Shown in pieces: positions 6,342 through 42,101 of a DNA stretch of 64,000 nt. The DNA comes from Patescibacteria group bacterium. GTDB lineage: Bacteria > Patescibacteriota > Patescibacteriia > UBA1558 > GWA2-36-10. The stretch spans positions 2,369 through 66,368 of the forward strand of contig JBAYIQ010000002.1 of NCBI GenBank assembly GCA_041665545.1, given 5' to 3'. A program made the translations under genes and the position numbers. The notes beneath the pieces are model-generated. The model was given only the letters and a program-made list of their open reading frames with translations. It did not search any database and was not told the DNA's origin. Position 1 is the first letter of the stretch. Each line of letters begins with the position of its first letter.

Positions 6342-7103
6342 TTATCTTTTGTACACCCGCGAAGAAACCGTAGTTTGTAAGTGGTGACTGGCCTGTTCAA
6401 TTGGCTGAGTGCTAAAATATTTTACCACTAAATTAACCGTCACTTTTGGTTGCTGATTGTTCAAGCCAGTGTCGTCAAAATAGGGATTAGTGGTTGGTGT
6501 CAAATTAAAATCCAAACTAGTTATCTGAACTTTATTATAACTTTGAGACAATAATACGACTGGTGCCTGGCCAGTAGCGATACTACAATTTGAGTAAACA
6601 TTATCAAGATAGAAGCAATCCAATTGAACATAATCAATCTCTATTTCAGTATTATCACTGACGCCATCATATGTGCCATCGTAGAAAAAACCCGCTGTTT
6701 CACCATTTTCTCTAACAAACATCAAGCATTTGGTGTATCTAGCATCAACCGACGAGCAAGCCGAAGTGTCAAAACTAATAATTTCATTATTCTTGATTTC
6801 TCTGCTGATTATTTCCAAAACGTACTGAGCGTTGTTTAATAATACTTGCGAACTCTGAGTTCTTTTTTGGTTGTTGGCAAAAGTACTAAACATCGAAGAA
6901 GCTATGGTGGCAATCACAGAAAAAATTGACACAGCAATCAGCATCTCCACCAAAGAAAACCCAGTACGAGAAACCGTAACATTATTCTTTAAAATCAATA
7001 ATTTTTTAATAATCTTAACCACTCTGGGTGACCAACTTAAACTTATTGGTTTCTCTGACTGGGCAAGCCCATTTTTATTATTAACTTTAATCATTGTCGC
7101 CAA
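6342..7103 (-). CDS. type IV minor pilin (prepilin-type N-terminal domain)
   Basis: Class III signal ...SRTG|FSLVEMLIAVSIFSVIA. The true start may be an internal TTG giving a ~13-aa leader. PilW-like position. Confidence 0.65.
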   Translation of the reverse strand: MATMIKVNNKNGLAQSEKPISLSWSPRVVKIIKKLLILKNNVTVSRTGFSLVEMLIAVSIFSVIATIASSMFSTFANNQKRTQSSQVLLNNAQYVLEIISREIKNNEIISFDTSACSSVDARYTKCLMFVRENGETAGFFYDGTYDGVSDNTEIEIDYVQLDCFYLDNVYSNCSIATGQAPVVLLSQSYNKVQITSLDFNLTPTTNPYFDDTGLNNQQPKVTVNLVVKYFSTQPIEQASHHLQTTVSSRVYKR

Positions 7104-7723
7104 TTATAAATATTTTCTACCACATCAATATGGCTGGTCTTGCTACCATAAGTATATTGGACTCGAGAAGTGACCTGTAAGCCAATTTTTTCTAAACCAA
7201 CACAAAACAGGTCGCTGGATACAGTTTCTATAGGAGCCACTGCGCTTGGAGCTGTGTTGAGGCAAATCGCTTTCAAATTTATCACTCGGCGAAAAACAGT
7301 CTCTTGGCTACTCGCACTATCACTAGTATAAAAACCATTTTTAACATACAGCTTAGACAAAGGATTATTTATAGCATCATCAAAATTACTCTCAACTATT
7401 TGGACTGTATTATTTCCGGTAGAACTGGCATAAGAATAATTAAAATTCAAACCACTATCCCAGTCATACAAATCTATGTCTAGATCGCTTGTATCAATAT
7501 CAATATTGGCCTCACGCGCTAGCCAATTACTGTCGCGAATATTACGCATAATCTCAATACCCTCTCTGGCTAAATCCGCGGCTACCACCCTATTATAATT
7601 TTCTTTAACTGTATTTAAATTATTCAAGGACAAAGAAAAAGCCGCTAAAATGCCAATAAAAAACACCGCAATAGCGATCAATAACTCGACCAAAGTAAAC
7701 CCGGTTAGAGAATCACGACCCAT
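7091..7723 (-). CDS. type IV minor pilin (prepilin-type N-terminal domain)
   Basis: Start refined to the ATG at 7723: MGRDSLTG|FTLVELLIAIAVFFIGILAAF, a canonical prepilin cleavage/methylation motif. PilV-like position. Confidence 0.7.
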   Translation of the reverse strand: MGRDSLTGFTLVELLIAIAVFFIGILAAFSLSLNNLNTVKENYNRVVAADLAREGIEIMRNIRDSNWLAREANIDIDTSDLDIDLYDWDSGLNFNYSYASSTGNNTVQIVESNFDDAINNPLSKLYVKNGFYTSDSASSQETVFRRVINLKAICLNTAPSAVAPIETVSSDLFCVGLEKIGLQVTSRVQYTYGSKTSHIDVVENIYNWRQ

Positions 7724-7914
7724 AAAAATTTTTATACTAGAAAATTTATTTGTAATTTTATTTACTTGCTTACACAAATTAAAATTAATAAAATTCTCTA
7801 ACTGGGTAAAGCCCGTCATGGAGTCGCTAAATTTAAAAATATTTATTCCTGCTAATTTTTTACCCACCATTATTATTACTTTAATATAAAGCCGTAAAAA
7901 TTAATTATTTTTTC

Positions 7915-8856
7915 TTAAATACACGGTAGTGGATCAATATCTCCCAACCATTGACAATCCAGACAGTACCCGTGTACGTGGCTAGGGCAACAATTTGGCG
8001 GATCAACAAGACCACCGCAATCACCGTGTGAATTTATATCAAGACATGAATAAAGCCAACCGATATTAGGACATTCCAGATAATTATCTCTGTCCAGACC
8101 ATCAACTATTTCACATGTTTCAGACTGCATGATATAGCTATCACCGCAAGTGTTAATAATACAGTCTGGCCGGCAACTAGGATCAGACACGCCGTTTACA
8201 GTTGGTTCACAAGCTTCCCCAAGCTCTATAACGTCATTGCCACAAACTGGCCGGTTGGTGTCATAGGTAGTAGACAAATTGCTCCAAGTAAAATCATCGC
8301 TAGTTTTCTGACCGATAGTTATGGTTGATTTATAATAAATAGGCAGTGACTCTTCAAGAAATCCGTAATATATATCTATTTGATATTCACCTGTAGCGCT
8401 AGCATAAAAACCGGCTGGCTCAAAAATATTCTCAGTTTTAAAAACAAATCGTTTTTCACCTGTTGCACCCGTTGCATTAATCGCCGCTTCATAGCCATTA
8501 TAATAATTCGGATCAACCAAGCGAAAAGCCACATTGGCTAAGGTGACTGTTTTTAAAACATTAGAAGTACTACCAGCATATAATTTATAATAGCTTTTAT
8601 CGCCCGCCGTGCCATCACCATTGTGGAAAAAAATGCCATAGCCATTGCTTGGGAAGCTGCCGTTGTAGGTGGCCCTGGTAGCGGCCATGCTTCGCACATA
8701 GCGAATATCAGCCGCCAATCTAGTGGTATCCATCCTTAGTAAGGCAATAGTATCTGGTCTCATGTTGACCACAAAAAAAACAGACATTATGCCAATAATT
8801 ACTATCACAGCCATAACCTCAATCAAAGTAAACGCTGAACTATTATTCCAACGCAT
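7915..8856 (-). CDS. type IV minor pilin with Cys-rich C-terminal domain
   Basis: Start refined to the ATG at 8856: MRWNNSS|AFTLIEVMAVIVIIGIM. The C-terminal 90 aa carry more than 12 Cys. FimT/GspH-like position after pilD. Confidence 0.65.
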   Translation of the reverse strand: MRWNNSSAFTLIEVMAVIVIIGIMSVFFVVNMRPDTIALLRMDTTRLAADIRYVRSMAATRATYNGSFPSNGYGIFFHNGDGTAGDKSYYKLYAGSTSNVLKTVTLANVAFRLVDPNYYNGYEAAINATGATGEKRFVFKTENIFEPAGFYASATGEYQIDIYYGFLEESLPIYYKSTITIGQKTSDDFTWSNLSTTYDTNRPVCGNDVIELGEACEPTVNGVSDPSCRPDCIINTCGDSYIMQSETCEIVDGLDRDNYLECPNIGWLYSCLDINSHGDCGGLVDPPNCCPSHVHGYCLDCQWLGDIDPLPCI

Positions 8857-8860
8857 ATTA

Positions 8861-9640
8861 TTAAAACAATAATAAATTAAAATACCATTTGATAATTTCA
8901 CTGCCATATAGCAAACTAGCAAACGTCGCCACAGTCAAAAAAGTACCAAAAGGCACCCTGTCACTCCACTGTTTTCTTTTGCTCAAAATCAGAAAAATAC
9001 TAATAATACTGCCCAAGGTATAGGCCAAGATCAAAGCCAATAGCACCTGTGGCCAGCCAAGTAGCGCGCCCATCAAAAGCCCAATGCGTATATCTCCCCC
9101 GCCAATCCAACGGCCTTTGGACACCACAAACTGCATTAAGAAAAATCCTGCTCCCACTAGGCAAGCCAGTAAAACTTTAAAAATATTGCCACCCAAAATA
9201 ATATTGAACACAAAGGCAATAACGGCCGCCGGTAAAACTACGGCATCAGCCACCAGATAATATTTCCAATCAAAAACAAAAATTATAATCAAAAAAGCCG
9301 TGGCTACCCACCAGTTGAGCAGTGCCAAGTACTGCCAATAAGTGGCCTGATAAATATCAGGGGGCATGACGCTGGTATACACCAAAACCAAGCTCAGGGC
9401 TGTAAATAACTCCACCAAAGGATATTGGATGGAAAATTTGTGCTTACAATGCCGACACTTGCCTCTTAGATAAAAATAGCTAAAAAAAGGCACCAAATCT
9501 CTGACCATGAGCTGATGCTGACAAAAAAGGCACTTGGATCTTCCCTTAACAAAGGTCTCTTGGCGATGCAAACGAAAAACTACCACATTCAAGAAACTCC
9601 CTAAAAATAGACCAAAAATAAAAATTAAAGCTATTAACAT
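8861..9640 (-). CDS. pilD: prepilin peptidase (A24 family)
   Basis: 259 aa; the N-terminal Cys pairs C-x-x-C...C-x-x-C (CLFCQHQ...CRHCKH) and a polytopic membrane body are typical of PilD/GspO. Confidence 0.85.
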   Translation of the reverse strand: MLIALIFIFGLFLGSFLNVVVFRLHRQETFVKGRSKCLFCQHQLMVRDLVPFFSYFYLRGKCRHCKHKFSIQYPLVELFTALSLVLVYTSVMPPDIYQATYWQYLALLNWWVATAFLIIIFVFDWKYYLVADAVVLPAAVIAFVFNIILGGNIFKVLLACLVGAGFFLMQFVVSKGRWIGGGDIRIGLLMGALLGWPQVLLALILAYTLGSIISIFLILSKRKQWSDRVPFGTFLTVATFASLLYGSEIIKWYFNLLLF

Positions 9641-9794: not shown

Positions 9795-10070
9795 TTACAT
9801 AATTTTACCCCACTGTCCATTAATGAGTTTTTCTTTTTTGATCCTGCTCCAATCTTTTATTTCTTTTTCTCTATATCTCGCACAATCAAAATCATCATAT
9901 TCCTCAACATAGATCAATTTTTTAATCCCATGCTTAGCTGTAAATTTAGAACCTAAACCACTTAAATGTTGATCAAGCCTTTTACTGACATCATTAGTTA
10001 AACCAACGTAATAAAGATCATCCTTGCAGAGGATAATATAAACAAACCATGATTTTTCTTTTTTAGACAT
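9795..10070 (-). CDS. small GIY-YIG nuclease family protein (UPF0213/YhbQ-like)
   Basis: 91 aa; WFVYIILCKDDLYYVGLTNDVSKRLDQH is a GIY-YIG motif. A second, interrupted copy lies at 28537-28815. Confidence 0.75.
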   Translation of the reverse strand: MSKKEKSWFVYIILCKDDLYYVGLTNDVSKRLDQHLSGLGSKFTAKHGIKKLIYVEEYDDFDCARYREKEIKDWSRIKKEKLINGQWGKIM

Positions 10071-10244: not shown

Positions 10245-10682
10245 TTACAAATCCACGCAATACAGCAACGCTTCTTTCAGGATCCGACAACGGCCACCTT
10301 TGAACTTATTCACACCCCAAGCTGGCCAAGAATTATTCACCGAAAAATCTAGCTGATAATCATCATTCTGAATAGCCAAAGTAGTGTCCTCTGGCCAGAC
10401 AACATTATTAACATAAAATATCTGCGAACCACTTTCATTGACTCCTTGATCAGAAATATACTTAAGCTTATCAATAGTGATTTTGTCAATCTCCGGATAA
10501 GAACGATAAAGAGAATAATATTTTTCCAAAGCCCCGACTAGCAGTCTGGCATTGACTGCTGTCTGCACATCACGACTGCGACTATTGTTGTAATTAGTAA
10601 CTAGTACAATACCAATAATAGCCAAGACCATCAGCCCAATAAAAATTGCTTTAGTTTTTAAACTATATCTATCTAGTATCAT
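10245..10682 (-). CDS. hypothetical membrane-anchored protein, possibly degenerate pilin-like
   Basis: 145 aa with an N-terminal TM helix followed by SRSRDVQTAVNARLLVGALEKYY, which resembles the post-helix region of type IV pilins. There is no canonical G-F-T-L-I-E site. Confidence 0.35.
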   Translation of the reverse strand: MILDRYSLKTKAIFIGLMVLAIIGIVLVTNYNNSRSRDVQTAVNARLLVGALEKYYSLYRSYPEIDKITIDKLKYISDQGVNESGSQIFYVNNVVWPEDTTLAIQNDDYQLDFSVNNSWPAWGVNKFKGGRCRILKEALLYCVDL

Positions 10683-10733: not shown

Positions 10734-11138
10734 TCATATGTCAGTTTTAGTACAGCCATCCTGAGTACAAGTCACAGTCGCAATATCAGTAATAGCACTA
10801 AAAGAAAAACTATTGGCCCCCTGATCACTGTCACAAAGGCCTTCGTCTACACCCATGGGGACGCGTGGCCACTCACTGTCAGAGCCATTACACAAAAGAT
10901 CTTCCTCTTGCCAAACTCGCGTGCCGTCACAAGCCACACCAGTACTATCTCTCAAATCCTGTTGAGCATCCTGACACAAAACAGCGGCCGAAATAAGACC
11001 AGACAAGGCCTTCTCAGCAGCCGCCACGCGCGCCAGCTTCCTGGCTCTATCCATACGCACCACTTGATAAGCCCCTAAGATACCAATAATGGCTATAACT
11101 ACCAATATTTCTATTAAACCAAAACCTTTTCTCTGCAT
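10734..11138 (-). CDS. type IV major pilin (PilA-like), paralog 2
   Basis: Start refined to the ATG at 11138: MQRKG|FGLIEILVVIAIIGILG. It shares an LCQD motif and a Cys pair with the neighbouring pilin. Confidence 0.8.
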   Translation of the reverse strand: MQRKGFGLIEILVVIAIIGILGAYQVVRMDRARKLARVAAAEKALSGLISAAVLCQDAQQDLRDSTGVACDGTRVWQEEDLLCNGSDSEWPRVPMGVDEGLCDSDQGANSFSFSAITDIATVTCTQDGCTKTDI

Positions 11139-11224
11139 ATAATATATTATACCATAATATTTGGAGTAACAAAAAACCCTACGCGAAATAGCGAGGGAAT
11201 TTTGTTTTTGAACTATAATAAATG

Positions 11225-11647
11225 CTACGAACAATAAGTAGCAGTTTGATTGGTAGCAGAAACACAACCATTTTGATTACATGTTATGCTCTCCCATGAA
11301 CCAGGTGTACCTGATTCTAAACCAATCTCCCATGTGCCATTTTGCGGATCCGCCTCAATGACGCAAGGTGTATAACCAGTTGGTGCTGTTGGCCATAATT
11401 GACCAATGGCATTACCAGCCGCTAATCCACAAATATCTGCAGTAACAAGATAAGGATTTAATACAGCAGTGGTGTCTTTATCTTGACACAAAACAATAGC
11501 GCCAGAAAGACTGGAACCCCAAGCTTTGGCAGCGGCTACTTTGGCTTTGTTTCTAGCTTGGTTCAAGTTAACAACGGCCACGACTGACAAAATACCGATA
11601 ATGGCAATAACCACTAACAACTCAATTAAAGTAAAACCTTTTTTCAT
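11225..11647 (-). CDS. type IV major pilin (PilA-like), paralog 1
   Basis: Start refined to the ATG at 11647, preceded by a GGAGGTG RBS: MKKG|FTLIELLVVIAIIGILSVVAVVNLNQARNKAKVAAAKA. Confidence 0.85.
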   Translation of the reverse strand: MKKGFTLIELLVVIAIIGILSVVAVVNLNQARNKAKVAAAKAWGSSLSGAIVLCQDKDTTAVLNPYLVTADICGLAAGNAIGQLWPTAPTGYTPCVIEADPQNGTWEIGLESGTPGSWESITCNQNGCVSATNQTATYCS

Positions 11648-11760
11648 TGTTGTTTCACCTCCCTTCAAATACCCAAGGCAATAATCTATAGCTTGAGATC
11701 CCCAAAGCTCTAAATAAATCCTTGGTTTTTTTAATTATTAAATTAATAAATACTTCTTAT

Positions 11761-11793: not shown

Positions 11794-13002
11794 CTAATCA
11801 ATATTTTGGGCTACTTTGTACATAGGCAACATAATAGCCGCTACTATACCACCCACACCCACACCCATCAGTATCAAAATTAGTGGCTCAATCAAAGTGG
11901 TCATATTGGCTACCATAGTATTGATTTCTCGACTATAAAAATCACTTAAGCGCTCCAAAATAGTGTCAATGCGACCGGTCTTTTCACCCACAATCATCAT
12001 CTGGGAAAGCATTTTGGGTACAAGGGGAGACTTGGCAAACAAAGTAGAAATAGAATTACCGGCCTCTACCTCAGCCACGGTCTTCATAATCAAATCAGCG
12101 TAAGCTTTGTTGTCCACCACCTCAGCCGTAATACGCAAGGCCATAGAAATCGGCACTCCGCCTTTGATCAGCGTATGCAAGCTCCTCGTAAAACGCACTA
12201 AATATATTTTCTTAAACAGTCCACCAAAGATGGGAATTTTGATCTTGATAGAGTCCCACATATTTTTACCACTTTGGCTCTTGGTCCAATACACAAAAAT
12301 AAAAGCTAATATTAATAATATAAAAAGAATATAATACCAAGAGCTGACCATAAAATCAGAAATAGCAATCAGCCAATTGGTGATAGCTGGCAATTCGGCG
12401 CCGCTTTCTTTGAGCATGGGCGTCAATTTGGGCAAAATATAGACCATCATCAAGACACTGACCCCAACCAAACCCACCAGAATCACCACTGGATAAATCA
12501 TGGCGCCTTTGATGCGAGCCACCAGATCATAATCTTTTTCCATTTGGTCGGCTAGGTACTCCAAGACCTCCTCCAGACGGCCAGAAGTCTCACCGCTTTT
12601 TATCATGGCCACAAAAAAATTGCTGAATATCTTGCTGTGCTTACTCATGGCATCAGATAGCTTCATGCCACCATCCACATCATTGGCAATTTCTATTATC
12701 TTGTCGGTGAACACTGGGTTACTAGTCTGCTGGGACAAAATACGCAAGGCCTGCACAATCGGAATAGTAGCGCTGATCATCACCGCCAACTGCCGAGAAA
12801 ATATCACCAAATCTTTTTGGTTGACTCCGCCGAGATTGATATTGATGCCTTTGAAATTCTTTTTCTTGCCCGCCACCAGTGACAAGACAATCAAACCGCG
12901 CTCACCCAAAAGCTCGGCGGCCTCGTTTTCTCCGGGCGCCTCTACGATGCCCGACAGTGACTCGCCATCCATGCTCCTAGCTCTGTATTTATAAGTGGCC
13001 AT
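11794..13002 (-). CDS. pilC: type IV pilus assembly platform protein (GspF family)
   Basis: 402 aa with two T2SS-F-like domains and polytopic membrane topology; operon position between pilT and the pilins. Confidence 0.88.
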   Translation of the reverse strand: MATYKYRARSMDGESLSGIVEAPGENEAAELLGERGLIVLSLVAGKKKNFKGININLGGVNQKDLVIFSRQLAVMISATIPIVQALRILSQQTSNPVFTDKIIEIANDVDGGMKLSDAMSKHSKIFSNFFVAMIKSGETSGRLEEVLEYLADQMEKDYDLVARIKGAMIYPVVILVGLVGVSVLMMVYILPKLTPMLKESGAELPAITNWLIAISDFMVSSWYYILFILLILAFIFVYWTKSQSGKNMWDSIKIKIPIFGGLFKKIYLVRFTRSLHTLIKGGVPISMALRITAEVVDNKAYADLIMKTVAEVEAGNSISTLFAKSPLVPKMLSQMMIVGEKTGRIDTILERLSDFYSREINTMVANMTTLIEPLILILMGVGVGGIVAAIMLPMYKVAQNID

Positions 13003-13004: not shown

Positions 13005-14072
13005 TTATTGTTTGAAATTCTGCTTAAATACTTGCGGGTTTCCTGCTACCTTCATAGCATCTTCAGGGTTGACCTCTCCGGCTTTGACTAGGTCAGACAG
13101 TGATTTGTCAAAATAGACCATACCCTCTTCCCGCGAAGTCTGCATGATGCTATTGAGTTGATAAAGATGATTATCCTTAATACTGGATCTGACGGCTGGG
13201 GTGTTGGTCAGCACTTCGCAAGCCAATCGTAAGCCCCCGCCCACTCGAGGCAATAGTCGCTGGCCAATAGCTACCAACAATACTTCGGCTAGCAGATTCT
13301 GACCCCAAGCTTTTTTGTCCGGCCCCAAGTTGCTGATAAAGCGGTCTAGACTGGAGATGATAGACTCGGTTTCCATGACTATAATGACTAATTTTCCGCT
13401 TTCGACTAGCTCGAGCGCCGACTCTTCCAAACCATCTTCTACCATACCACCGATAAATACCACATCAACATCCTCTTCTTTTATGGCCTCTAGGCCTTTG
13501 AGGTAGCTGGGCGTGTCGCGGCCGACTTGGCGCTGTTCGATGATTGATTGGTTGTTGACAAACAAATATTCAATGGGATTTTCCAATATTTGGATATGGA
13601 GGCCGCGATTGTGATTGAGAGTTTCTATTAAAGAAGCCGCGGTAGTGGTGCGTCCACTGCCAAATGGTCCAGTGATGATGATTAGGCCGGAATTTTTGGT
13701 CAATGCCTGTGTCACTGCTTGGGGTATGCCCAAATCTTTGGGTGACATAATAAAAGGCGGTATCATCCGAAAAGACAGGGCCAAAAATCCTTTTTGATAA
13801 AAAACTTTGGCTCGGTATCTGGCGCGCTCATTCCAAGTATAGACAGTGACCACTTCCCGCTCCTTGGTCAGTCGCTCTAATTCGTCTTTGCTCAAAAATG
13901 ACTCCGCCAAACCATTGATAATATCTGGTGTCATCACCTGCTCTTCACTAACTGTTGATAATTTGCCATCTATCCGCAAAACTGGATTATTGCCAGCCAC
14001 AAGATGCACATCAGTCGCCTTGCGCTCTGAAGCAATGTTTAATATTTTATTGATTAACAAGGTGTCAGTCAT
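13005..14072 (-). CDS. PilT-like retraction ATPase homolog with degenerate catalytic motifs (probable pseudo-ATPase)
   Basis: 355 aa and alignable to PilT along its length, but Walker A is GPFGSGRTT (K->R), the Asp box is LENPIE (D->N), Walker B is FIGGMVED (catalytic E->G), and the His box is GKLVIIVMET (both His lost). Confidence 0.8.
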   Translation of the reverse strand: MTDTLLINKILNIASERKATDVHLVAGNNPVLRIDGKLSTVSEEQVMTPDIINGLAESFLSKDELERLTKEREVVTVYTWNERARYRAKVFYQKGFLALSFRMIPPFIMSPKDLGIPQAVTQALTKNSGLIIITGPFGSGRTTTAASLIETLNHNRGLHIQILENPIEYLFVNNQSIIEQRQVGRDTPSYLKGLEAIKEEDVDVVFIGGMVEDGLEESALELVESGKLVIIVMETESIISSLDRFISNLGPDKKAWGQNLLAEVLLVAIGQRLLPRVGGGLRLACEVLTNTPAVRSSIKDNHLYQLNSIMQTSREEGMVYFDKSLSDLVKAGEVNPEDAMKVAGNPQVFKQNFKQ

Positions 14073-14468: not shown

Positions 14469-16205
14469 TTAAGATTTGCTGACCCTCATTACTTCTTCCA
14501 AGGTAGTCCAACCCAAAGCAACTTTTATCAAGCCATCTTGCTCCATGGTGATAAAATGCTGTTTTTGTAACTCCGCTTCGGCTTGACGCCTATCAAAGCC
14601 CTTGGCTACTATTTCTTGAAGCTCACGATCAATACTCATGGCCTCGACTATTGATAAACGGCCTTTGTAGCCAGTCTGGCTACAGTTGGGACAGCCCACG
14701 GCTTTATAAAATTTTATATTTTCCACCTTGAAACCACTATAATAAGCTTCCTTGGGTATGGTAGCTAGCTTGCTCTGCACCTGTGCGCTAAGATCGGCTG
14801 GCAACTGACTTTCTACCTTGCAACTATTACACAATTTCCTGACCAAGCGTTGAGCCACGACGGCGTTTAAAGTATTAGCCAGCAAAAATGGCTCCACTTT
14901 CATATCAAACAAACGGGGTATAGCACCCATGCAGTCATTGGTGTGCAAAGTGGTTAAGACTGAGTGTCCAGTCAAACCAGCATGAATGGCTAACTCAGCT
15001 GTTTCATTGTCGCGAATTTCTCCCACCATGATAATATCAGGATCTTGCCTCAAGAGTGAACGCAAACCAGTGGCAAAAGTAAAATTAACCTCGGGCTTGA
15101 TCTGGGCCTGATTGACTCCGGGAATATAGTACTCCACTGGATCTTCCAAGGTAGCAATATTTATATCTTCTTTATTTAAAAAACTCAAAGCCGCATAAAG
15201 AGTGGTTGATTTACCGCTACCGGTAGGCCCTGTCACTAGAAATAGCCCGTGGGGCTCATTGATGCTTTCCATGACAATCTTGGCCTGCAAACCAAAAAAT
15301 CCTAAGTCAGCAAAAGTCGGCGCTTTATCAGGAGTTTCCAAAAGCCGCATAACTACTTTTTCTTGACCCATCAAGGGCAAAGTAGAAACGCGAATATCAA
15401 TTTCTTTGTTGTGGACATTGATGCGAATACGACCATCTTGCGGTATGCGAGTTTCATCAATTTTCAAGTTGGCCATGACTTTGATTCTGGATATCAAGGC
15501 GGCGTGCACATAAATAGGCAAGACAATGGTCGTGTGCAAAATACCGTCAATTCTATATCTAACTCGACTTTGTTTGTTCACTGGCTCAATATGAATATCC
15601 GAAGCGCGCCCTTCAATAGCGTGCCTCAGCACCACCGAAACAATTTTGGAAACTGGAGCGCTTTTGACTACCTCAGATACATCGGTCTGAGCGCCGGTCT
15701 CAACATCCATGGTACCAAATATCTCTTCGGCTGTACCCAGGGCCTCGCCTACTTCATGCCCCAAGGTCTCATATTGCTTGATAGCGCTACGATAGCTGTC
15801 CTGGGAGATGATATAGTACTTGACGCCATATTGTCGCTTGCGAGCCAAAAAATTAAGGGCTTCAACCGCTTTAAGGTCAGTGGGGTCTACTAGGCCGGCT
15901 GATAGATTATCCCCTTCCCGACCAAAAACTACCATATGATAATTATCAGCTAAATCTTGAGGAAAAATATTTAATATTTCACTGGAAATGACTACGCCCA
16001 TCAAAGAACGATATTCCAAACCATAGAAAATACCCTTGGCCTGCGTCCAATCCTCTTCCGATAAAATAACCATCTGCCTGATGGCATTTTCCATATCAGT
16101 AAAAGAAGCGAATTGTTGGTTAGACAATTCGTTGCGTTGAATATCGGTAATATATTGATGGCTAGCCAGCCAGGCCAGTAATTTGTCTGTTTCTTTTTTT
16201 ATCAT
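14469..16205 (-). CDS. pilB: type IV pilus assembly ATPase (GspE family)
   Basis: 578 aa with intact Walker A (GPTGSGKST), Asp box (LEDPVEY), Walker B (MVGEIRD) and His box (GHSVLTTLHTND), plus a tetracysteine CNSC...CPNC. Confidence 0.9.
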   Translation of the reverse strand: MIKKETDKLLAWLASHQYITDIQRNELSNQQFASFTDMENAIRQMVILSEEDWTQAKGIFYGLEYRSLMGVVISSEILNIFPQDLADNYHMVVFGREGDNLSAGLVDPTDLKAVEALNFLARKRQYGVKYYIISQDSYRSAIKQYETLGHEVGEALGTAEEIFGTMDVETGAQTDVSEVVKSAPVSKIVSVVLRHAIEGRASDIHIEPVNKQSRVRYRIDGILHTTIVLPIYVHAALISRIKVMANLKIDETRIPQDGRIRINVHNKEIDIRVSTLPLMGQEKVVMRLLETPDKAPTFADLGFFGLQAKIVMESINEPHGLFLVTGPTGSGKSTTLYAALSFLNKEDINIATLEDPVEYYIPGVNQAQIKPEVNFTFATGLRSLLRQDPDIIMVGEIRDNETAELAIHAGLTGHSVLTTLHTNDCMGAIPRLFDMKVEPFLLANTLNAVVAQRLVRKLCNSCKVESQLPADLSAQVQSKLATIPKEAYYSGFKVENIKFYKAVGCPNCSQTGYKGRLSIVEAMSIDRELQEIVAKGFDRRQAEAELQKQHFITMEQDGLIKVALGWTTLEEVMRVSKS

Positions 16206-16549
16206 GGATTGACCTCAACTTTTGGTTTGTTAAATGGCTCAGGATTCCCCACGCCCTCTTCTATATTTATATTGACACTAAAACCCTGCAATTGCTTGTA
16301 TTGCTCACTATTAAATAAATCGTCCAAACTATTACTACGCACAAAATTTTTATAATTTTCCTCGGTCAAAATCCGCTCTCGCTGAGCATCAACTTTTTGT
16401 TGATTGATTGGCTTGATTTGTCCCATTATTTTCCCCCAAACTTCTATCACTGATATATTTTTTTGCTGTAAATATATAAAGCCGCCAGCCAGAACAATGA
16501 CTAGACCCAAAGTAATTAATTCCCAAGATAATCTTTTTTTACTTTCCAT
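16202..16549 (-). CDS. small membrane-anchored protein (PilP-like position)
   Basis: 115 aa with an N-terminal TM helix; assignment rests on operon position after the pilO-like gene only. Confidence 0.35.
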   Translation of the reverse strand: MESKKRLSWELITLGLVIVLAGGFIYLQQKNISVIEVWGKIMGQIKPINQQKVDAQRERILTEENYKNFVRSNSLDDLFNSEQYKQLQGFSVNINIEEGVGNPEPFNKPKVEVNP

Positions 16550-16552: not shown

Positions 16553-17284
16553 TTATCGATAATATGTCTGGACTGAAAATTGAAATTGCGGTGGAGTTTT
16601 TGAATCTTCCTGCAAAGAAGCAAAATTTACTGTTTGGATATCAGTCAAGCGTAAATTTTTCTCCAAGGCATCCAAAAATTCTTTGAATGACTCATAATAT
16701 GTTTTGTTTTGGCCACCATTGGCTTCTTCCATAGTTACTTCACCATCTGTAGCTTGAGGGCTTATTTTGAAGGCCACCACCAAAGTCTTCAGTGCTATAA
16801 TATTTTTACTTTTCGTGGTGGTGGCAACTTGAGTAGTAGTATTACCATCTTCATCGCTGACTACTACTTGGGGACTAGACTTTTTTTTGTCCTCGCCGTC
16901 AGTGATACTAATATCCAAAAGTTGGAAGCCATATTCCAAGGCCAATCTATCACTCAAAACAAAAAGCTCAGCAATTTGCGGATTGTTGGGTACAATTTCT
17001 TTCAAGCGCTCTAAATCAGCCTGACGATTACTCATAATACCTTCATAAGTAGTCTTCAGGGTCTCTAGATTTTTTAATAATTGCTGACTTTTATCTTTAT
17101 CTACCGAGGTCTGCAGAGCACCCTCGCGTAAAGTATCATTGCTTTTTATTTTTTGTTGAATAAGTATATAGTAACCGCCCAATAGCAAAACTCCCACTAA
17201 AATCGCAGTAATAATAATCCAAAAACGATTGAAGAAAAGCAACAATTGTGAGGGCTGTTCAAATTGTACTTGTTTGTCTGGCAT
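16553..17284 (-). CDS. PilO-like pilus assembly protein
   Basis: 243 aa with an N-terminal TM helix then a coiled-coil region; position after the pilN-like gene. Confidence 0.45.
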   Translation of the reverse strand: MPDKQVQFEQPSQLLLFFNRFWIIITAILVGVLLLGGYYILIQQKIKSNDTLREGALQTSVDKDKSQQLLKNLETLKTTYEGIMSNRQADLERLKEIVPNNPQIAELFVLSDRLALEYGFQLLDISITDGEDKKKSSPQVVVSDEDGNTTTQVATTTKSKNIIALKTLVVAFKISPQATDGEVTMEEANGGQNKTYYESFKEFLDALEKNLRLTDIQTVNFASLQEDSKTPPQFQFSVQTYYR

Positions 17285-17289: not shown

Positions 17290-18762
17290 TTAGTTTTCTT
17301 GACTATAATAAAATAAGTCTTGATTGAGCGATAAAATAATTTGAAAACTGACCGCACCATCTTTATCTTGTTTGGCACTGGTGATACTGGCCTCCTCCAC
17401 AAATTCTTGAGCTTTTTCAGAATTCAAAACTTTGAGCTGTTTGGCCACACTATCATAGCTATTAGTAGAGGCGTTTAGTGTCAAACCGCCATTAGTACCA
17501 ACTGCCAGGCCCGAATAATAAACATCGCTGACTGTATATTTTTCTAATAAGCTGAAAAAGTGTGTCCAATAAATATGCTTATTTAGGGCATCCTGAACTA
17601 CTCTAATTTCTTGGCCCAGGGTGTTAATATTTTTGTTTAATTCCGAAAAAGTTAATATCTTTTTTTCAATTTCAGATATTTGCTGTTTCTGATTATTTTG
17701 ATTACCTATAATCTTCTGTTGTTCCAACATCAAGTAGCCATAAAGGCCGCCTAATATTGCCAATGACAAGACCAGTCCAAAAGCCAGCAATGAGCCAATT
17801 TGTTTCCAGCTCCTGACTTTGGCGGCAACAGGAATCAAGTCCACTATACCACTAAGCAAAGAATTTTTTTCACCAACTTCCGGCATGTGAAATTTCGGCC
17901 CAGTGGTCAATGGCTTGGGGATGTCGGTGTTGTCTTCTATGGATGCCATTTTCGGTTCTGGCTCTACTGCTTTTGGCGCAATCGGCATGGCAAAATCATT
18001 GACGATTGGCTGGGCTTCAGCTTTTGGTAATTCTGACGTCTGGCTAACTGGCCAGAGTGGAGCGGCACTGACTGGTTGAAGTGGAGCTAAACCCACTTCT
18101 TCACTGACTTTTTTGGTCAGATCAAAATTTGTTTCTGGCTGTGTCGTGACACTTACCTGATCATTTATTTTTTTTGGCTTTAGATCATTGCTGTCAGCGC
18201 TTTCAGCTGACTTATTCAATTCTTGAAGAACCTTGATGCTTGGCTTGGCTTCTGGCTGATGCACACCATTGCCATTGTATTTCAGGCCATTGCTAAGAGC
18301 TGAACTGTCTGATTTTTTGGCTTTTGGCTTTGATTTGAACATGGCCAAAAATCTAGACCAAAAAGACGGACCGTGGGGCTTATTTTCTTTTGACAATTTG
18401 GCTTTTTCCGGCACAAAATCCTGAATATGCTCTTCTATTTTAGCTGACATTTTTTCCGGTACTCGCATATCAATGGAAACAACTTTTGGTTGACTATTGG
18501 TCTTGTCGTCATTATTGTATTTTATACCCTGACCCAAGGCCGAAACAGTCGGCGTGTCTGAAGTGGCTTTTTTGGGCTTTTGATCATGCTTAAATAATTT
18601 TGACCACCAAGAAACTTGCCCACCGCTGAGTTTTGGCTCTTTAAATTTTTCTTTTTTACCAGATATTTTGAAGTCCGGATCAAATTTAAAAATGGGGCGC
18701 TTGGATTTATCCTCTCTAGAGCGTAAATTTTCTGGCATTAGATTAATTTTCTTGTCGTCCAT
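17290..18762 (-). CDS. PilN-like pilus assembly protein with long disordered N-terminal extension
   Basis: 490 aa; a Lys/Pro-rich low-complexity N-terminal half, then a TM helix and a C-terminal PilN-like domain; immediately after pilM. Confidence 0.45.
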   Translation of the reverse strand: MDDKKINLMPENLRSREDKSKRPIFKFDPDFKISGKKEKFKEPKLSGGQVSWWSKLFKHDQKPKKATSDTPTVSALGQGIKYNNDDKTNSQPKVVSIDMRVPEKMSAKIEEHIQDFVPEKAKLSKENKPHGPSFWSRFLAMFKSKPKAKKSDSSALSNGLKYNGNGVHQPEAKPSIKVLQELNKSAESADSNDLKPKKINDQVSVTTQPETNFDLTKKVSEEVGLAPLQPVSAAPLWPVSQTSELPKAEAQPIVNDFAMPIAPKAVEPEPKMASIEDNTDIPKPLTTGPKFHMPEVGEKNSLLSGIVDLIPVAAKVRSWKQIGSLLAFGLVLSLAILGGLYGYLMLEQQKIIGNQNNQKQQISEIEKKILTFSELNKNINTLGQEIRVVQDALNKHIYWTHFFSLLEKYTVSDVYYSGLAVGTNGGLTLNASTNSYDSVAKQLKVLNSEKAQEFVEEASITSAKQDKDGAVSFQIILSLNQDLFYYSQEN

Positions 18763-18772
18763 TTCAAAAAAA

Positions 18773-19873
18773 TTATATATCGCGCATACCTAGGCCAATA
18801 GCCACGGACATGCGTGGACCAATCTCATGCAAAACTGGCTTCAAATCCAAAGGATAAATCACTCTGTCCCAAGGATCACCAATCACCACTGGCAAATTCA
18901 AGATGGTGTTCAAATACTGTGGTAAATTTGGTAAAAAAGCGCTACCACCAGTCAAGACAATCTTATCAATCATGGAATTACCTAGGCGCTGATAACTGTC
19001 AAAAATAAATTTTATTTCATTGATAACTGGTGTCAAAGATTTTTCAATAACCTCTGGAATGTTTTGGGTATTGCCAGCTGACAAACCAAAATCTCGCTTG
19101 AATTGCTCGGCTCGATCTTGGTTGATATTCAAGCTGTTCATAATAGCCTTGGTGATTGACTCACCACCAGTGTCAATACCGCGGTTTAAGACCGGCACTC
19201 CTTCTTCAATAATACAAATATCCGAATTACTGGCGCCAATATCCACTACCATGACCGTGGACAAATCATTGCCAATCAAAGAACGCGACAAGGCAAAGGC
19301 CTCAGTTTCCAAGCTCAATAAATTAAGCTTGGCTTTTCTAAATATATCAATATAGCGGGCTACTAAATTTTTTGGCGCCGCCGTTAATAAAATACGATAA
19401 TTTTTGTCATCATCTTTTTTGGCGGCACTTTGATTTTTTACCAAATCAATACCGGCTACTGGCGTGGCTGTGGCCGCTGATTTTTTCCTCTTACCTAATA
19501 TCTTGTGATCCAAAATCATTTCTTCAATTGGCACGGGAATAAATTTCTTAGCTTCCCACTTGATAGCCGCTTGTAAATCTTTTTTGGGCATGGGTGGCAA
19601 AGTGATAATAAAATTGAACACCGAAAAAGTAGGCAAGGCGGCTACTACCTGCTTGGTTTCCATTTTGGATTTGTGAGCGATCAAATTGATATAATCAGCA
19701 ATAGCTTGGTTATTTTTTTCGGCTGAACCACGCAAAATATTGGCCGCCACCTCAGCGTAACCATAAGTTTTGAGCTTGGCCTGGCCCTTGAAATTTTCCA
19801 GCTCCACCAGCTTGATGCTGGAGGTGCCTATATCAACGCCTAAATAGCTAGTAGTATTAGAAAATAAACCCAT
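18773..19873 (-). CDS. pilM: type IV pilus assembly ATPase-fold protein PilM (actin-like)
   Basis: 366 aa; GVDIGTSSIKLVEL... and ...MVVDIGASNSDICI are actin/FtsA-like phosphate motifs typical of PilM. Confidence 0.85.
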   Translation of the reverse strand: MGLFSNTTSYLGVDIGTSSIKLVELENFKGQAKLKTYGYAEVAANILRGSAEKNNQAIADYINLIAHKSKMETKQVVAALPTFSVFNFIITLPPMPKKDLQAAIKWEAKKFIPVPIEEMILDHKILGKRKKSAATATPVAGIDLVKNQSAAKKDDDKNYRILLTAAPKNLVARYIDIFRKAKLNLLSLETEAFALSRSLIGNDLSTVMVVDIGASNSDICIIEEGVPVLNRGIDTGGESITKAIMNSLNINQDRAEQFKRDFGLSAGNTQNIPEVIEKSLTPVINEIKFIFDSYQRLGNSMIDKIVLTGGSAFLPNLPQYLNTILNLPVVIGDPWDRVIYPLDLKPVLHEIGPRMSVAIGLGMRDI

Positions 19874-19953: not shown

Positions 19954-22860
19954 TTAATAACTAGAAAATCTGGGTATAACTCTACTCATGTCCGTCAAGC
20001 CCAATGGCGGATTGGATTGCAGACGTCCATCATTAATAAACCTCTCAGCTGGATCACCGTCAGTATTCACAGAAACTCTACCCAAGACAAACTGTCGAGC
20101 TAAAACACTACCTTTAACTTTTAAAAATTTATCATCATCAATAGGAGTCGAAGCTGTTGTGGATTTAAATCGCCCACAACCAGAAGCGGGACAAGCCGTT
20201 GATCCATTACCCAAAACAATAAATGTGCCTGCAATCTCTGTAACATCTGAATCTACGGAAACATCACCTTTAACTATCCAAACCAAGGAAGGAATTTTTT
20301 TTAAATTATCTATAACACAAGACTCATATCTAATGTCATTTTCTATTTTCATACTACCCTCAACAACGATAATACCAGCCCCGCTTGAACTACTAGCATC
20401 ACCACACTTCACTACCAAATCAGTACCATCACCAAATTTTACTCCATACCCCAAGTTAAATGGGACGCCAGTCACATGAAATACCTGATTATTAAAAGGA
20501 TTATTAAATATGTCATTATTAGCATAATTATTAGAACCAACTGTTTTTTCTTCTATGGCTCCACCGTATTTATTATAATCAACTAAGCCAACAGTTTTAG
20601 CTACGGTAATCAGACCAGTGTAGTCTAGTTTACCCAAAGCATTTGTGTATTTGGTACTACCCAAATTACTCAAAAAATTAATCAGTGGCCTACTCTCCAA
20701 CTCACCTTGATACTTTTCAGTCTTTGACACCTCGCTGACAAAGTTTGTAATAGTGCCACCAGATTCTATCAAATAAGAAGCATTGTATTTATTGATTGGT
20801 GGCTGATAGCGAGTTACTATCCTATTTTTAGAATAAATATTCCCCTTGTCCACTGAAAAATAGGGCTTGGTACTAGTAGAAATACGTGGCGAAAAATTGA
20901 CCCAGCCAAAACCTCTGTTGCCAGACGCACTGGACCAGGCATTGTAGCCCCAGCCACACAAAGTGCTGGCGCTAGATAGACCGTGTTGATTATCATAAAT
21001 CACCCCTCCATCACGATAAAGAGTGGATTTGATGCCAGAACCATCGTCTATCTCACATTTACTACAACGATTGTTATTAAGACCAGAAGCATTGAGAGTG
21101 CAGGAATTAGCTAAATTTTCGATTGTACAGTCTGTGCAGTTAAAACCAGATAAAACCTTTTTTAAATCTCCGGCTTGATGAGCAATACACTTGTCACCAG
21201 TTATGAAACCGTTACACTGAGCATCTGTTGTACAGGTAGTATCTGGCTGTAGTTGGCAAGTCGAACTATTAGCTGAATAATAAAAATATTCCTGACAATT
21301 TTCACAAGTGGACAGAAGATCATCAACCACACAAATATCAGTATTATCAATGCATCCATTCTGGGTAAAGTCGCTACAAGAATTAACACTTTGATCACAA
21401 ATACAACTACCACCAGAAGTTGCGCATTTATATGTTTTTTCTCTATAACAATTAAAGCAACCCCTCAAAGGATTGTTGGTACTAGTGGCTAAGTTGGGAT
21501 TATCATCGTCGTGAGTAATTTGAGTAGATAGAATTGTTGCATTGTCTATATAAAATTTTATAGGAAAACCCAGACGATTGGCTTGACTATATCCATTAGT
21601 GGTAGTGACTGACTCCATTTTGACGATACTGGCGTAACCTTCGTTATCTGAGCCATAGGGATTTAGGGCATTTATGTATTCGGTTGGTGAGTTTGTATAA
21701 TTGTACGGCTCATAGCCCTCCTTACAAATATTTACATCACAACTATTAGGAACATCTAACCAACTCAAGGGAGCGTTGAGCCCGCAATAAAAAAGATCCC
21801 GATCGCCACAGTCAAAATCATAAGCGCAATTTTTTGCTGGAAACGTTGGGTCGTCTGAGCTTATGTCATAGCAAACGCCAGTACCTAAAGCCGAAGAATC
21901 CAAACTAGCCTGCGGGAAAACACACTCCGCGCCACTTGAACAATTTTTATCAAGATAGCACGAAGTCATGGCCGGATCAACAGCCGTAATATCATCAAAA
22001 GGTGGCTTATGACCACGAAAATCATTGAGCACGGCTGTTTGCTTTGGAGAATTATCAAAACAAACTCCTTTTAATAAAAAATATTGATCAGCATCATTTT
22101 CACAGGCAAATTCACAATCATCGTCATTATTGCAAGAACCACCTGATACCAAGCAAGTATTAGCGACGCACGGGTTACCACAATCATTATCATCATTGCA
22201 AGAACTATGTGATATCTGACACTCCTTAGTAATGGTATTACACGAGTTACCACTCGAACAATAATTAGAACTGGAACATGATCCTGAATTAAGACTACCA
22301 GATTCACAGGTTCCCGTAACCATAGTGCACTGACAATAGCTAACATCAACTGTGGCGTTACTCATCAAAACGCCATTTTTCGGAGCATTCGTGCCACCAG
22401 AGTCAGGATCAGAAAAACAAATCCAACCGGGAGTAGTGTAGTTGGACCCAGCAGGAAGATTACCATCCTCATCTGGCTCCAGAGCCGTACTACCGGCCCA
22501 AGCGCAACCTTTTATATAATCCAAATCAACACTCGGTGTGGCTGGATCATTATCGTGATCAACGTTGGGCATGATAGTCATTTTCAAACCCCAAGGACTG
22601 GGTGATGCGCAAGAGCCAGTCCCTAAAGCATAGTTACCATCCGGCTCGCCATCACCATCAAAATCATTGGCACAGCTCAAGGCAATCCAGCCCATAGCGT
22701 CATTCCAAGCCCAACCAACAATTGGCGTGTTATCTTGATAAACATTTTGTATCAGGGCCTTGGTATCCACGGATTTTTGTAACAAAAAAAAGCCAAAAAC
22801 AAAAATCAGCATACTTATCACAATACGACTATAAAAATGATAGTGAAAATCAACTTTCAT
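19954..22860 (-). CDS. large Cys-rich secreted/membrane-anchored protein (putative pilus-associated adhesin)
   Basis: 968 aa with an N-terminal TM anchor and more than 60 Cys in a CxxC / C-rich extracellular body; first large gene upstream of pilM in the same operon. Confidence 0.55.
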   Translation of the reverse strand: MKVDFHYHFYSRIVISMLIFVFGFFLLQKSVDTKALIQNVYQDNTPIVGWAWNDAMGWIALSCANDFDGDGEPDGNYALGTGSCASPSPWGLKMTIMPNVDHDNDPATPSVDLDYIKGCAWAGSTALEPDEDGNLPAGSNYTTPGWICFSDPDSGGTNAPKNGVLMSNATVDVSYCQCTMVTGTCESGSLNSGSCSSSNYCSSGNSCNTITKECQISHSSCNDDNDCGNPCVANTCLVSGGSCNNDDDCEFACENDADQYFLLKGVCFDNSPKQTAVLNDFRGHKPPFDDITAVDPAMTSCYLDKNCSSGAECVFPQASLDSSALGTGVCYDISSDDPTFPAKNCAYDFDCGDRDLFYCGLNAPLSWLDVPNSCDVNICKEGYEPYNYTNSPTEYINALNPYGSDNEGYASIVKMESVTTTNGYSQANRLGFPIKFYIDNATILSTQITHDDDNPNLATSTNNPLRGCFNCYREKTYKCATSGGSCICDQSVNSCSDFTQNGCIDNTDICVVDDLLSTCENCQEYFYYSANSSTCQLQPDTTCTTDAQCNGFITGDKCIAHQAGDLKKVLSGFNCTDCTIENLANSCTLNASGLNNNRCSKCEIDDGSGIKSTLYRDGGVIYDNQHGLSSASTLCGWGYNAWSSASGNRGFGWVNFSPRISTSTKPYFSVDKGNIYSKNRIVTRYQPPINKYNASYLIESGGTITNFVSEVSKTEKYQGELESRPLINFLSNLGSTKYTNALGKLDYTGLITVAKTVGLVDYNKYGGAIEEKTVGSNNYANNDIFNNPFNNQVFHVTGVPFNLGYGVKFGDGTDLVVKCGDASSSSGAGIIVVEGSMKIENDIRYESCVIDNLKKIPSLVWIVKGDVSVDSDVTEIAGTFIVLGNGSTACPASGCGRFKSTTASTPIDDDKFLKVKGSVLARQFVLGRVSVNTDGDPAERFINDGRLQSNPPLGLTDMSRVIPRFSSY

Positions 22861-22867
22861 TAATTAT

Positions 22868-30248: not shown

Positions 30249-30338
30249 TGGCGGAGAGTGAGGGATTCGAACCCCCGATCCCCTTGCAGGGATAACAGTT
30301 TTCAAGACTGTCGCATTCGACCGCTCTGCCAACTCTCC
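30249..30338 (-). tRNA. tRNA-Ser (anticodon TGA), 90 nt including encoded CCA
   Basis: Manual cloverleaf: acceptor GGAGAGT/ACTCTCC, anticodon stem ACAGT/ACTGT, loop CTTGAAA, long variable arm, T-loop TTCGAAT, 3' GCCA. Confidence 0.8.
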
Positions 30339-30445: not shown

Positions 30446-30521
30446 TGGTGACCCCGGCAGGAATCGAACCTGCAACCTTTTGGACCGCAACCAAACGCTC
30501 TATCCATTGAGCTACGAGGCC
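30446..30521 (-). tRNA. tRNA-Arg (anticodon GCG), 76 nt including CCA
   Basis: Manual cloverleaf: D-stem GCTC/GAGC, anticodon stem TTTGG/CCAAA, loop TTGCGGT, 5-nt variable loop, T-arm GCAGG TTCGATT CCTGC, 3' ACCA. Confidence 0.7.
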
Positions 30522-31181: not shown

Positions 31182-31273
31182 TAAATTATGGTGGCGGAGA
31201 GGGCGAGATTCGAACTCGCGGACCAGTTTAACCCGGTCAACAACTTAGCAGGTTGCTGCTTTAAGCCACTCAG
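31182..31273 (-). tRNA. tRNA-Ser (anticodon GCT), 92 nt including CCA
   Basis: Manual cloverleaf: acceptor GGAGAGG/CCTCTCC, anticodon loop CTGCTAA, long variable arm TGACCGGGTTAAACTGGTC, T-loop TTCGAAT. Confidence 0.8.
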
Positions 31274-31487
31274 CCACCTCTCCACAGTAATACATCAATT
31301 AAATTTCCCGAAAAAATTTATTACAAATAAAATATAAATTGGCAATTAAGCCCCGTATATGAGCGTAGCGAATTGTACGGGGCACCTCTCCGTGCATAAA
31401 TCAGCTTATATAGTAATATATTTTGTTGATTTTGGCAAGGGTGCTAATGTTCAAAATAAACAGCCTATTTTTTGTTTACCAAACATA

Positions 31488-42097: not shown

Positions 42098-42101
42098 ATT
42101 A

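Follow-up and report, generated by a model that had tools for sequence, protein, structure and literature searches.

The stretch of 64,000 nucleotides analysed here (the window) comes from a Patescibacteria group bacterium (contig JBAYIQ010000002.1) and carries a type IV pilus operon. Its genes and its closest relatives likewise point to Patescibacteria. In the slot of the retraction ATPase PilT, the operon encodes a PilT-like protein with degenerate motifs (13005-14072, minus strand), which is named PilT* in this work. The Walker A lysine, the catalytic glutamate and both histidines of the His box are lost in it. PilT* is very probably a conserved and functional, catalytically impaired PilT ortholog, and its family is a conserved, putative pseudo-ATPase branch of PilT. 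The best explanation as a whole, to which we give a probability of about 50%, is that PilT* is a PilT ortholog forming a nucleotide-binding, hydrolysis-deficient ring that gates the extension ATPase PilB. Compared loci are denoted by L-numbers and representative proteins by P-numbers.

PilT* aligns with PilT along its full length. Its residues 6-349 pair with residues 14-358 of A. aeolicus PilT (2ewv; HMMER, E=3.8e-66), and the motif region is ungapped. In the HMMER ranking, 2ewv is followed by the PilTs of Thermus (T. thermophilus), G. metallireducens and P. aeruginosa, then by PilU and DotB, and only after these by PilB. A family-profile search against solved structures gave a PilT match at 1.4e-107. 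An AlphaFold2 (AF2) model built on 88 family members reached a mean pLDDT (predicted local distance difference test) of 93 and a pTM (predicted template modelling score) of 0.87, and its best Foldseek matches were the chains of G. metallireducens PilT4, with template modelling (TM) scores of 0.86-0.90. The protein consists of an N-terminal PAS-like domain and a RecA-like ATPase domain, and it has no zinc tetracysteine. An alignment shift that would restore a lysine, glutamate or histidine was ruled out by the HMMER alignments to four solved PilTs and by the family-profile search. The preliminary description of this DNA, which had reported a full-length PilT homologue with Walker A Lys->Arg, catalytic Glu->Gly and both histidines gone, is therefore correct on these points; the motif strings that it quoted are exact, the coordinates are confirmed, and alignment with PilT leaves the motifs where it had placed them. 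The profile TIGR01420 scored PilT* at 284.5 bits, under the curated NCBIfam cutoff of 319.1 bits, and scored the intact PilT P0159 of Paceibacterota at 427.2. Because of the score below the cutoff, homologues of PilT* are named 'ATPase, T2SS/T4P/T4SS family' or 'TadA' at NCBI. By its Walker A lysine, glutamate and His-box positions and by the TIGR01420 cutoff, PilT* falls outside the PilT ATPases; its fold, its homology and its position are those of a PilT.

The motifs themselves are listed in Table 1. In PilT numbering, E168 would correspond to PilT E163, K227 to H222 and E234 to H229, and on the same E163 numbering E168 is presumably the invariant Asp-box glutamate of PMC5424180. The segment AVRSSIKD, equivalent to the PilT-specific AIRNLIRE, is identical to it at 4/8 positions and agrees at 7/8 when conservative replacements are counted. 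By spacing from the published numbering (PMC6762196), R141 corresponds to PilT K136 and G209 to E204. R87 and R102 are spaced 15 residues apart, as are R271 and R286 of GmPilB (PMC5424180). All four motifs had been called degenerate in the preliminary description. This holds for the Walker A lysine, the catalytic glutamate and the His box, but as a whole it goes too far: the Asp box has lost only its aspartate, and the Asp-box glutamates, the glycines and Ser/Thr of the P-loop and two Arg-finger positions are all kept. Judged from its residues, the pocket appears to keep the scaffold for phosphate and Mg binding, with the residues for hydrolysis and gamma-phosphate sensing lost or relaxed.

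The degenerate state is shared by the relatives of PilT*. Conservation was counted over the best 120 matches listed, which are 45-99% identical to PilT*. Among them, R141 as well as E164 and E168 are present in 120/120, and position 165 of the Asp box is free to vary. The catalytic glutamate (209) is kept in only 22/120. The first His position is K/R227 in 120/120, the second is D/N234 in 107/120, and a histidine stands at either of the two in 0/120. The Arg fingers are kept as R87 in 111/120 (lysine in the other 9) and as R102 in 118/120. A wider set was composed of 100 His-box-less relatives, made non-redundant at 80% identity. Here residue 141 is Arg in 66, Lys in 32 and another residue in 2, and residue 142 is Ser/Thr in 97/100. 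The P-loop glycines G135 (100/100) and G140 (98/100), the Asp-box glutamates E164 and E168 (99/100 each), and Q180 and D186 (100/100 each) are almost invariant. The catalytic glutamate is kept in 33/100, Arg/Lys is found at 227 in 70/100 and Asp/Asn/Glu at 234 in 80/100. When these 100 degenerate sequences were compared with 25 intact ones, only L68 and G278 were conserved specifically in the degenerate set. Migrated catalytic residues were considered and rejected, since no alternative acidic residue or lysine stands out in this comparison. The conserved alternative signature is GSG-R-[TS]T, LExPIEY and SG-[KR]-L...M-[DN]-A. An exhaustive search among cluster representatives at 50% identity turned up PilT-like proteins of ~355 aa without a His box in dozens of distinct clusters. 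The states are graded: L047-L049, L052 and L054 keep both lysine and glutamate and have only the histidines gone, some loci have Arg + Glu, and others have lost everything, as in the window. One relative (P0161, locus L086) has Val at the Walker A lysine position in the same operon context as PilT*.

Purifying selection acts on PilT* as strongly as on PilB. The ratio of non-synonymous to synonymous substitution rates (dN/dS) of PilT* is 0.015 against L014 (98% protein identity) and 0.028 against L007 (96%), at a dS of ~0.69. In the same genomes, the values are 0.022/0.015 for PilB and 0.030/0.072 for PilC, so PilT* is like PilB and lies under PilC. On contigs carrying both genes, PilT* is 61-71% and PilB 67-75% identical to the query; PilT* is slightly less conserved. 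The motif states are identical in independent assemblies at 98%, 96% and 89-92% identity. Since the same substitutions recur in all 120 listed homologues and dN/dS stays within 0.015-0.03, the degeneracy is conserved and is not a recent decay. The orthologs thus share the degeneracy, as the preliminary description had proposed to check. Together, the conserved states, the dN/dS values and the confident fold show PilT* to be folded and functional, with an alternative pocket that has become fixed.

Two further kinds of altered PilT were encountered in the protein comparison. P0243 is a PilT of the type found in the candidate phyla radiation (CPR), with GHG-R-ST in Walker A (Lys->Arg), the catalytic Glu->Asn and an intact His box; by its sequence it would be a case of independent degeneration that does not belong to the His-box-less group. 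Tandem double-PilT fusions of 700-1000 aa also exist (P0122-P0129, P0133, P0134, P0199), mostly with both halves intact. In P0134 and P0199, a degenerate N-terminal half (e.g. GSGRSC, no His box) is fused to an intact C-terminal PilT, which suggests that a degenerate PilT module can cooperate with an active one.

The gene order PilM...PilB-CheY-PilT*-PilC was found in about 55-57 Patescibacteria loci. The synteny scan of GTDB species genomes yielded 78 loci, ~55 of them from Patescibacteria; its patterns (QLxSIMQTS[KR] and NNQS[IV]IEQ) do not match PilT of the P0159 type, and the scan is therefore silent on the presence of such PilTs. The loci with this order come from Komeilibacteria, Kerfeldbacteria, Buchananbacteria, Nomurabacteria, 'Parcubacteria' and metagenome-assembled genomes (MAGs) titled 'Gammaproteobacteria'. 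In records of the last kind the pilus operon and its neighbours clearly belong to Patescibacteria, and the records are titled 'uncultured Gammaproteobacteria bacterium' (SRP*/binchicken co-assemblies: L008-L012, L014, L020, L021, L023, L026; likewise L036, L045, L049, L056, L057 and L072). Their titles look mislabelled.

An intact PilT can occupy the same slot. L055 has an identical operon with a fully intact PilT (GHGKST, EDPIEY, GEMRD, GHLV..LHT, AIRNLIRE). The intact PilT of Paceibacterota (P0159 family), with 81-100% identity among the 120 matches listed, is followed by the block PilC-pilin-PilD-pilins-LigA-GatC-GatA in L005 and L085, as is PilT* in L001, L086 and the window. No locus with two PilT-like genes was seen among ~57 Patescibacteria loci with 10-kb flanks on each side, and a second PilT-like open reading frame (ORF) was not found within the 64-kb window. 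Because an intact PilT stands in the same slot, the downstream block is shared and no locus has two PilTs, PilT* is the PilT ortholog occupying the PilT slot and not an added paralog. It is therefore not an extra gene beside the pilus machinery. Each of the searches with PilT*, PilB and intact PilT gave a list of 120 matches. Among the matches listed, PilT* and PilB share many contigs, and no contig is common to the intact-PilT list and the PilT* or PilB lists. A study of the class ABY1 lists one pilT KEGG orthology (KO) assignment, of whichever PilT type, per genome for two closed and seven draft genomes (PMC11809585). On balance, PilT* is probably the only PilT-type protein in its genomes.

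Two loci show additional copies of related genes. One MAG (CAIRBL01, LaPlata-b_bin-0293) has two complete PilB-CheY-PilT*-PilC loci on separate contigs (L030 and L042), each with ~62% identity to the query; either the locus is truly duplicated or the bin mixes two species. In L087, where the operon is without CheY, the opposite strand encodes, 6.6 kb downstream, a fully intact PilB/GspE-like ATPase of 392 aa that has a tetracysteine (17734-18912, minus strand). This extra T2SSE gene was considered as a second PilT and ruled out, as it encodes a short PilB/GspE-like ATPase with a tetracysteine. It is a second assembly-type ATPase.

The CheY-like receiver next to PilT*, which the preliminary description had recognised, is confirmed (PF00072, 6.4e-25). 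Across the syntenic loci its D11, D12 and D54 are invariant and T84 is found in 55/56 (one Ser). The tail DYLIKAHF is conserved, and the lysine of DYLIK is present in at least 90% of the loci. The neighbour is a bona fide receiver domain and, by these residues, is predicted to be phosphorylatable. The receiver had also been offered as evidence for a regulatory PilT. By itself it is no specific sign of one, because the receiver adjoins the fully intact PilT of L055 and is missing beside the degenerate PilTs of L043 and L087. CheY as a marker of PilT degeneracy is thereby ruled out, and the receiver is a general member of this operon type.

The kept Asp-box glutamates, the Gly, Ser and Thr of the P-loop and the Arg-finger positions point to retained nucleotide binding rather than to a dead pocket. 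In RecA-type proteins, replacement of the P-loop lysine by arginine (RecA K72R, Rad51 K->R) or loss of the catalytic glutamate generally keeps binding and abolishes turnover. As PilT* carries changes of this kind, it would be a nucleotide-binding, hydrolysis-deficient ring. It would still bind ATP/ADP, probably as a hexamer, and would hydrolyse ATP not at all or very slowly. Since the degeneracy is conserved under selection, a non-motor role is the most economical reading. To this extent the regulatory or scaffolding role, rather than retraction, suggested in the preliminary description holds; the choice made there is not one that sequence can decide, since it hinges on whether an active PilT/PilU is encoded in another part of the genome. 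PilT* may be a non-motor ring whose action depends on nucleotide and which, at the PilC/PilM platform, gates PilB or competes with it. Such a ring could be a brake or clutch ending or licensing extension, and the CheY-like receiver is a plausible input choosing which ring engages. Retraction of the pilus would then be passive, absent or driven by another ATPase. The brake or clutch mechanism specifically is a tentative proposal.

Several points weigh against a hydrolysis-deficient ring that gates PilB. ATPase-dead PilT of V. cholerae behaves like a pilT deletion when PilU is missing (PMC6821130), and in MSHA pili PilT promotes extension only with ATPase activity in PilT or PilU (PMC9815625). 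Experiments offer no precedent for a PilT ring that is useful when all hydrolysis is missing; for this reason the finding is of interest, and the readings as an adaptor or as a non-canonical ATPase stay alive. Nucleotide binding, the hexamer and the contact with PilC or PilB are predictions for PilT*. An active partner ATPase may be encoded elsewhere in the genome. The Arg fingers are relaxed in the wider set (R87 is 61% R + 34% K, R102 is 60% R). Finally, both Lys and Glu are still present in ~14% of the His-box-less relatives; these might be slow ATPases, and the family would perhaps not be uniformly inactive. Since PilT functions need the ATPase of PilT or PilU in all model systems studied, the strong selection on PilT* implies a partner or a chemistry still to be discovered, or else a non-motor role.

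The partner is the subject of the adaptor reading, in which PilT* is an inactive docking ring that recruits an active PilT/PilU-type ATPase encoded elsewhere in the genome. In V. cholerae and A. baylyi, a dead PilT is functional alongside an active PilU (PMC6762196, PMC6821130), and the K136A variant of V. cholerae PilT still supports retraction through PilU. Intact and very conserved PilTs exist in Paceibacterota (P0159 family), and the fusions P0134 and P0199 join a degenerate N-half to an intact C-half. However, neither the 64-kb window nor the 10 kb around the ~57 loci contains a second PilT-like gene. The intact PilT of Paceibacterota lies in the same PilC-PilD-LigA locus and therefore looks like an ortholog rather than a partner. 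In addition, no contig is common to the PilT*/PilB and intact-PilT lists among the matches listed, which is a weak argument, and one pilT KO is given per closed ABY1 genome (PMC11809585). We regard an adaptor as unlikely.

An unknown chemistry would make PilT* a working retraction ATPase, with Arg141 and Lys227 binding the phosphates and the water activated either by a different acidic residue or by a partner protein. The pocket is indeed not randomised, as it has the signature of R141, K/R227 and D/N234 together with the P-loop, the Asp-box glutamates and the Arg fingers, and a subset of the relatives keeps both Lys and Glu. Yet mutants of RecA-type P-loops with Lys->Arg typically keep binding and lose turnover. 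The position of the catalytic glutamate is taken by S, A, G, C, Q and others, position 212 varies, and the family as a whole conserves no other acidic position, with only L68 and G278 specific to the degenerate set. Some predicted pseudoenzymes have migrated catalytic residues (PMC10211241). On the other side, the lysine, the catalytic glutamate and the Asp-box glutamate are otherwise invariant in the superfamily, and the His-box histidine is highly conserved (PMC5424180). A non-canonical retraction ATPase is improbable.

In a different non-motor role, PilT* would be no antagonist but an assembly factor with a positive effect on PilB-driven extension, serving the minor-pilin complex as chaperone or initiator, and the pili would be essentially non-retractile adhesins or DNA receptors. 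MSHA pili of V. cholerae need PilT for extension (PMC9815625), minor pilins are numerous in the operon, which also has a large PilX-like gene, and PilT* and PilB are selected equally strongly. The MSHA function, however, required the ATPase activity of the retraction motor, and an assembly factor appears just as improbable as non-canonical chemistry. A decaying pseudogene or assembly and sequencing errors, which the unusual motifs alone might suggest, have a negligible probability and are ruled out by the shared motif states of independent assemblies and by dN/dS of 0.015-0.03 at a dS of ~0.7, in line with an intact 355-aa ORF, a confident fold and conservation across candidate phyla.

Table 1. 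Features of the pilus operon and motifs of PilT* in the window.
Feature	Position	Strand	Remarks
PilT*, 355 aa, ATG start, intact ORF	13005-14072	-	R141, N165, G209, K227, E234 degenerate
Arg-finger region RARYRAKVFYQKGFLALSFR	13767-13826	-	R85, R87, R102
Walker A / P-loop GPFGSGRTT	13644-13670	-	Lys->Arg, residue 141
Asp box ILENPIEY	13566-13589	-	Asp->Asn (N165); glutamates E164 and E168 both kept
Atypical Walker B DVVFIGGMVED	13434-13466	-	Catalytic Glu->Gly, residue 209
Former His box SGKLVIIVMET	13368-13400	-	H->K227, H->E234
AIRNLIRE-equivalent AVRSSIKD	13173-13196	-	Partly conserved, A-V-x-S-x-I-[KR]-[DE]
PilM	18773-19873	-	PF11104, 2e-45
Three genes in PilN / PilO / small-protein positions	17290-18762, 16553-17284, 16202-16549	-	Placement between PilM and PilB
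PilB extension ATPase	14469-16205	-	Pfam T2SSE 7.4e-130 + MshEN N-domain
CheY-like single-domain receiver, 124 aa	14079-14453	-	PF00072, 6.4e-25; 6 nt upstream of PilT*
PilC platform protein	11794-13002	-	PF00482, 2.9e-59; begins 2 nt past PilT* stop
Major/minor pilin genes	11225-11668, 10734-11267, 10245-10682	-	N-terminal G/FTLIELLVV-type prepilin motifs in translations
PilD prepilin peptidase	8861-9640	-	PF06750 + PF01478
Four minor-pilin / PilX-like genes	7915-8922, 7091-7870, 6342-7103, 5494-6339	-	Prepilin-like N-termini
LigA, NAD-dependent DNA ligase	3486-5489	-	Pfam; then GatC/GatA (1166-2909), conserved downstream anchor

The operon is a complete type IV pilus operon of the monoderm type, with the order PilM-N-O-x-PilB-CheY-PilT*-PilC-pilins-PilD-minor pilins. 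It is tightly packed on the minus strand, with intergenic gaps of 15, 6 and 2 nt for PilB-CheY, CheY-PilT* and PilT*-PilC, and no outer-membrane secretin is present. PilB keeps every motif (GPTGSGKS, EDPVE, DIIMVGEIRD, TGHSVLTTLHT) and the Cys4 zinc site (CNSC...CPNC), in agreement with the preliminary description. Its profile scores are 521 bits for TIGR02538 (cut-off 675.65) and 526.7 for TIGR02533 (GspE), both below the cut-off. Residues 61-147 of PilB are an MshEN-type domain (PF05157, 1.2e-11), the c-di-GMP-binding domain of MshE-type ATPases. The three genes between PilM and PilB have no Pfam match; their placement is conserved in L001, L003, L006, L086 and L087, and the counterpart of the PilN/PilO-position genes in L087 gives a faint PilO match. 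Syntenic N_methyl genes are found in L001 and L003 for the pilin genes, and syntenic N_methyl / PilX_N genes in L001 for the minor-pilin / PilX-like block.

Other genes in the window were also inspected. Between the pilin genes and PilD lies an ORF of 91 aa with a GIY-YIG nuclease domain (9795-10070, minus strand; PF01541, 7e-18). It is not at the corresponding position in L001 or L003, and it could represent a small insertion, of the mobile or homing type, in the pilus operon. Directly upstream of PilM (19954-24013, minus strand), a Cys-rich protein of 968 aa and a protein of 381 aa are encoded, neither with a Pfam match. Large unannotated genes upstream of PilM also occur in L001, L003 and L006, and the two proteins may be conserved pilus-associated surface proteins. 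Further away, a mostly unannotated block (36978-43789, minus strand) with a TraG/VirB4-like P-loop ATPase (39520-41427; PF19044, 7.7e-29) could represent a type IV secretion module or a conjugation-like one. A giant ORF of 2757 aa (51472-59745, minus strand) is followed by one of 842 aa (48907-51435) without a Pfam match; both would be giant surface proteins of the kind typical for the CPR. Three tRNA genes lie at 30252-30338, 30449-30521 and 31195-31283 (minus strand), and two of them have the class II length of 87-89 nt.

Few systems are enriched throughout the CPR, and type IV pili are one of them; they are central to current models of host finding and DNA uptake by these ultrasmall episymbionts. 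Genome papers on the CPR list 'PilT, retraction ATPase, twitching motility' without comment (PMC5220378, PMC7143001, PMC11809585, PMC6744442), and a literature search of incomplete coverage found no paper describing degenerate PilT motifs in the CPR. If the protein in the PilT slot cannot hydrolyse ATP, the inferences on twitching, forceful retraction and retraction-driven DNA uptake need to be revisited. As a tentative extension, the sole PilT-type protein in a large part of Patescibacteria, namely ABY1-type lineages (Komeili-, Kerfeld- and Buchananbacteria) and Nomurabacteria-type Paceibacteria, could be a selected nucleotide-binding, non-hydrolysing pseudo-ATPase, which would serve as a nucleotide-gated and possibly CheY-gated switch displacing or licensing PilB at PilC; the type IV pili, to which host attachment and DNA uptake are ascribed, would then work with no retraction motor of their own. 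The textbook retraction of pili may not hold in a large part of Patescibacteria/CPR. If the tentative extension is right, no natural member of the PilT/GspE/VirB11 secretion-ATPase superfamily before PilT* would have combined a non-catalytic state with a core role in the machine. The family also offers natural 'mutants' for the dissection of PilT, with the His box lost only, with Lys->Arg in addition, and with Glu lost as well.

Compared with known systems, PilT* breaks the superfamily rule of invariant catalytic residues. The Walker A/B residues, the catalytic glutamate, two Arg fingers and the Asp-box glutamate were reported to be completely conserved across the PilT-like ATPase family by McCallum et al.; the Asp-box glutamate coordinates Mg in PilB, and one His-box histidine contacts the gamma-phosphate (PMC5424180). 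All four motifs are kept by five/five PilT paralogs of M. xanthus (PMC13584747) and by the PilT of the Saccharibacteria member TM7x (PMC11623550). PilT* has lost essential residues and has kept its fold and purifying selection, which are the marks of a pseudo-ATPase, and it is predicted to be inactive or very slow.

With PilT (2ewv/2gsz, G. metallireducens PilT4 6ojx, P. aeruginosa 3jvu), PilT* shares full-length homology, the two-domain fold, the absence of a tetracysteine and of an N-terminal extension, and the slot between PilB and PilC. It has kept the P-loop scaffold, the Asp-box glutamates and the Arg fingers, and its AVRSSIKD segment resembles AIRNLIRE in part. Unlike PilT, it is without the Walker A lysine, the catalytic glutamate and both histidines and scores under the TIGR01420 cutoff. 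PilU belongs to the PilT/PilU subfamily like PilT*, and among solved structures those of PilU match PilT* best after those of PilT. However, PilU keeps the four catalytic motifs, needs its ATPase and is encoded alongside PilT, whereas PilT* is degenerate and replaces PilT. The engineered ATPase-dead PilTs (K136A / E204A) of V. cholerae and A. baylyi demonstrate that a non-hydrolysing ring can still be functionally relevant (PMC6762196, PMC6821130). Of the known systems, PilT* would be closest to these in the way it works. In contrast to these laboratory mutants, which work only via PilU, PilT* is natural, ancient and selected, and no PilU-like gene was found nearby. The intact PilTs of Patescibacteria (TM7x, the P0159 family and L055) come from the same phylum and share its neighbourhoods, PilC-pilin-PilD-pilins-LigA or PilB-CheY-PilT-PilC. 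They differ from PilT* by GxGKST, EDPIE, GEMRD, GHLV..LHT and AI[KR]NLIRE (PMC11623550). The P0159 PilTs are also far more conserved than the PilT* family. ArlH/FlaH of the archaellum is a RecA-type protein that binds ATP, has an incomplete catalytic set and modulates a PilB/FlaI-type motor. Its likeness to PilT* is one of analogy, as ArlH/FlaH belongs to the KaiC-like and not to the PilT-like family.

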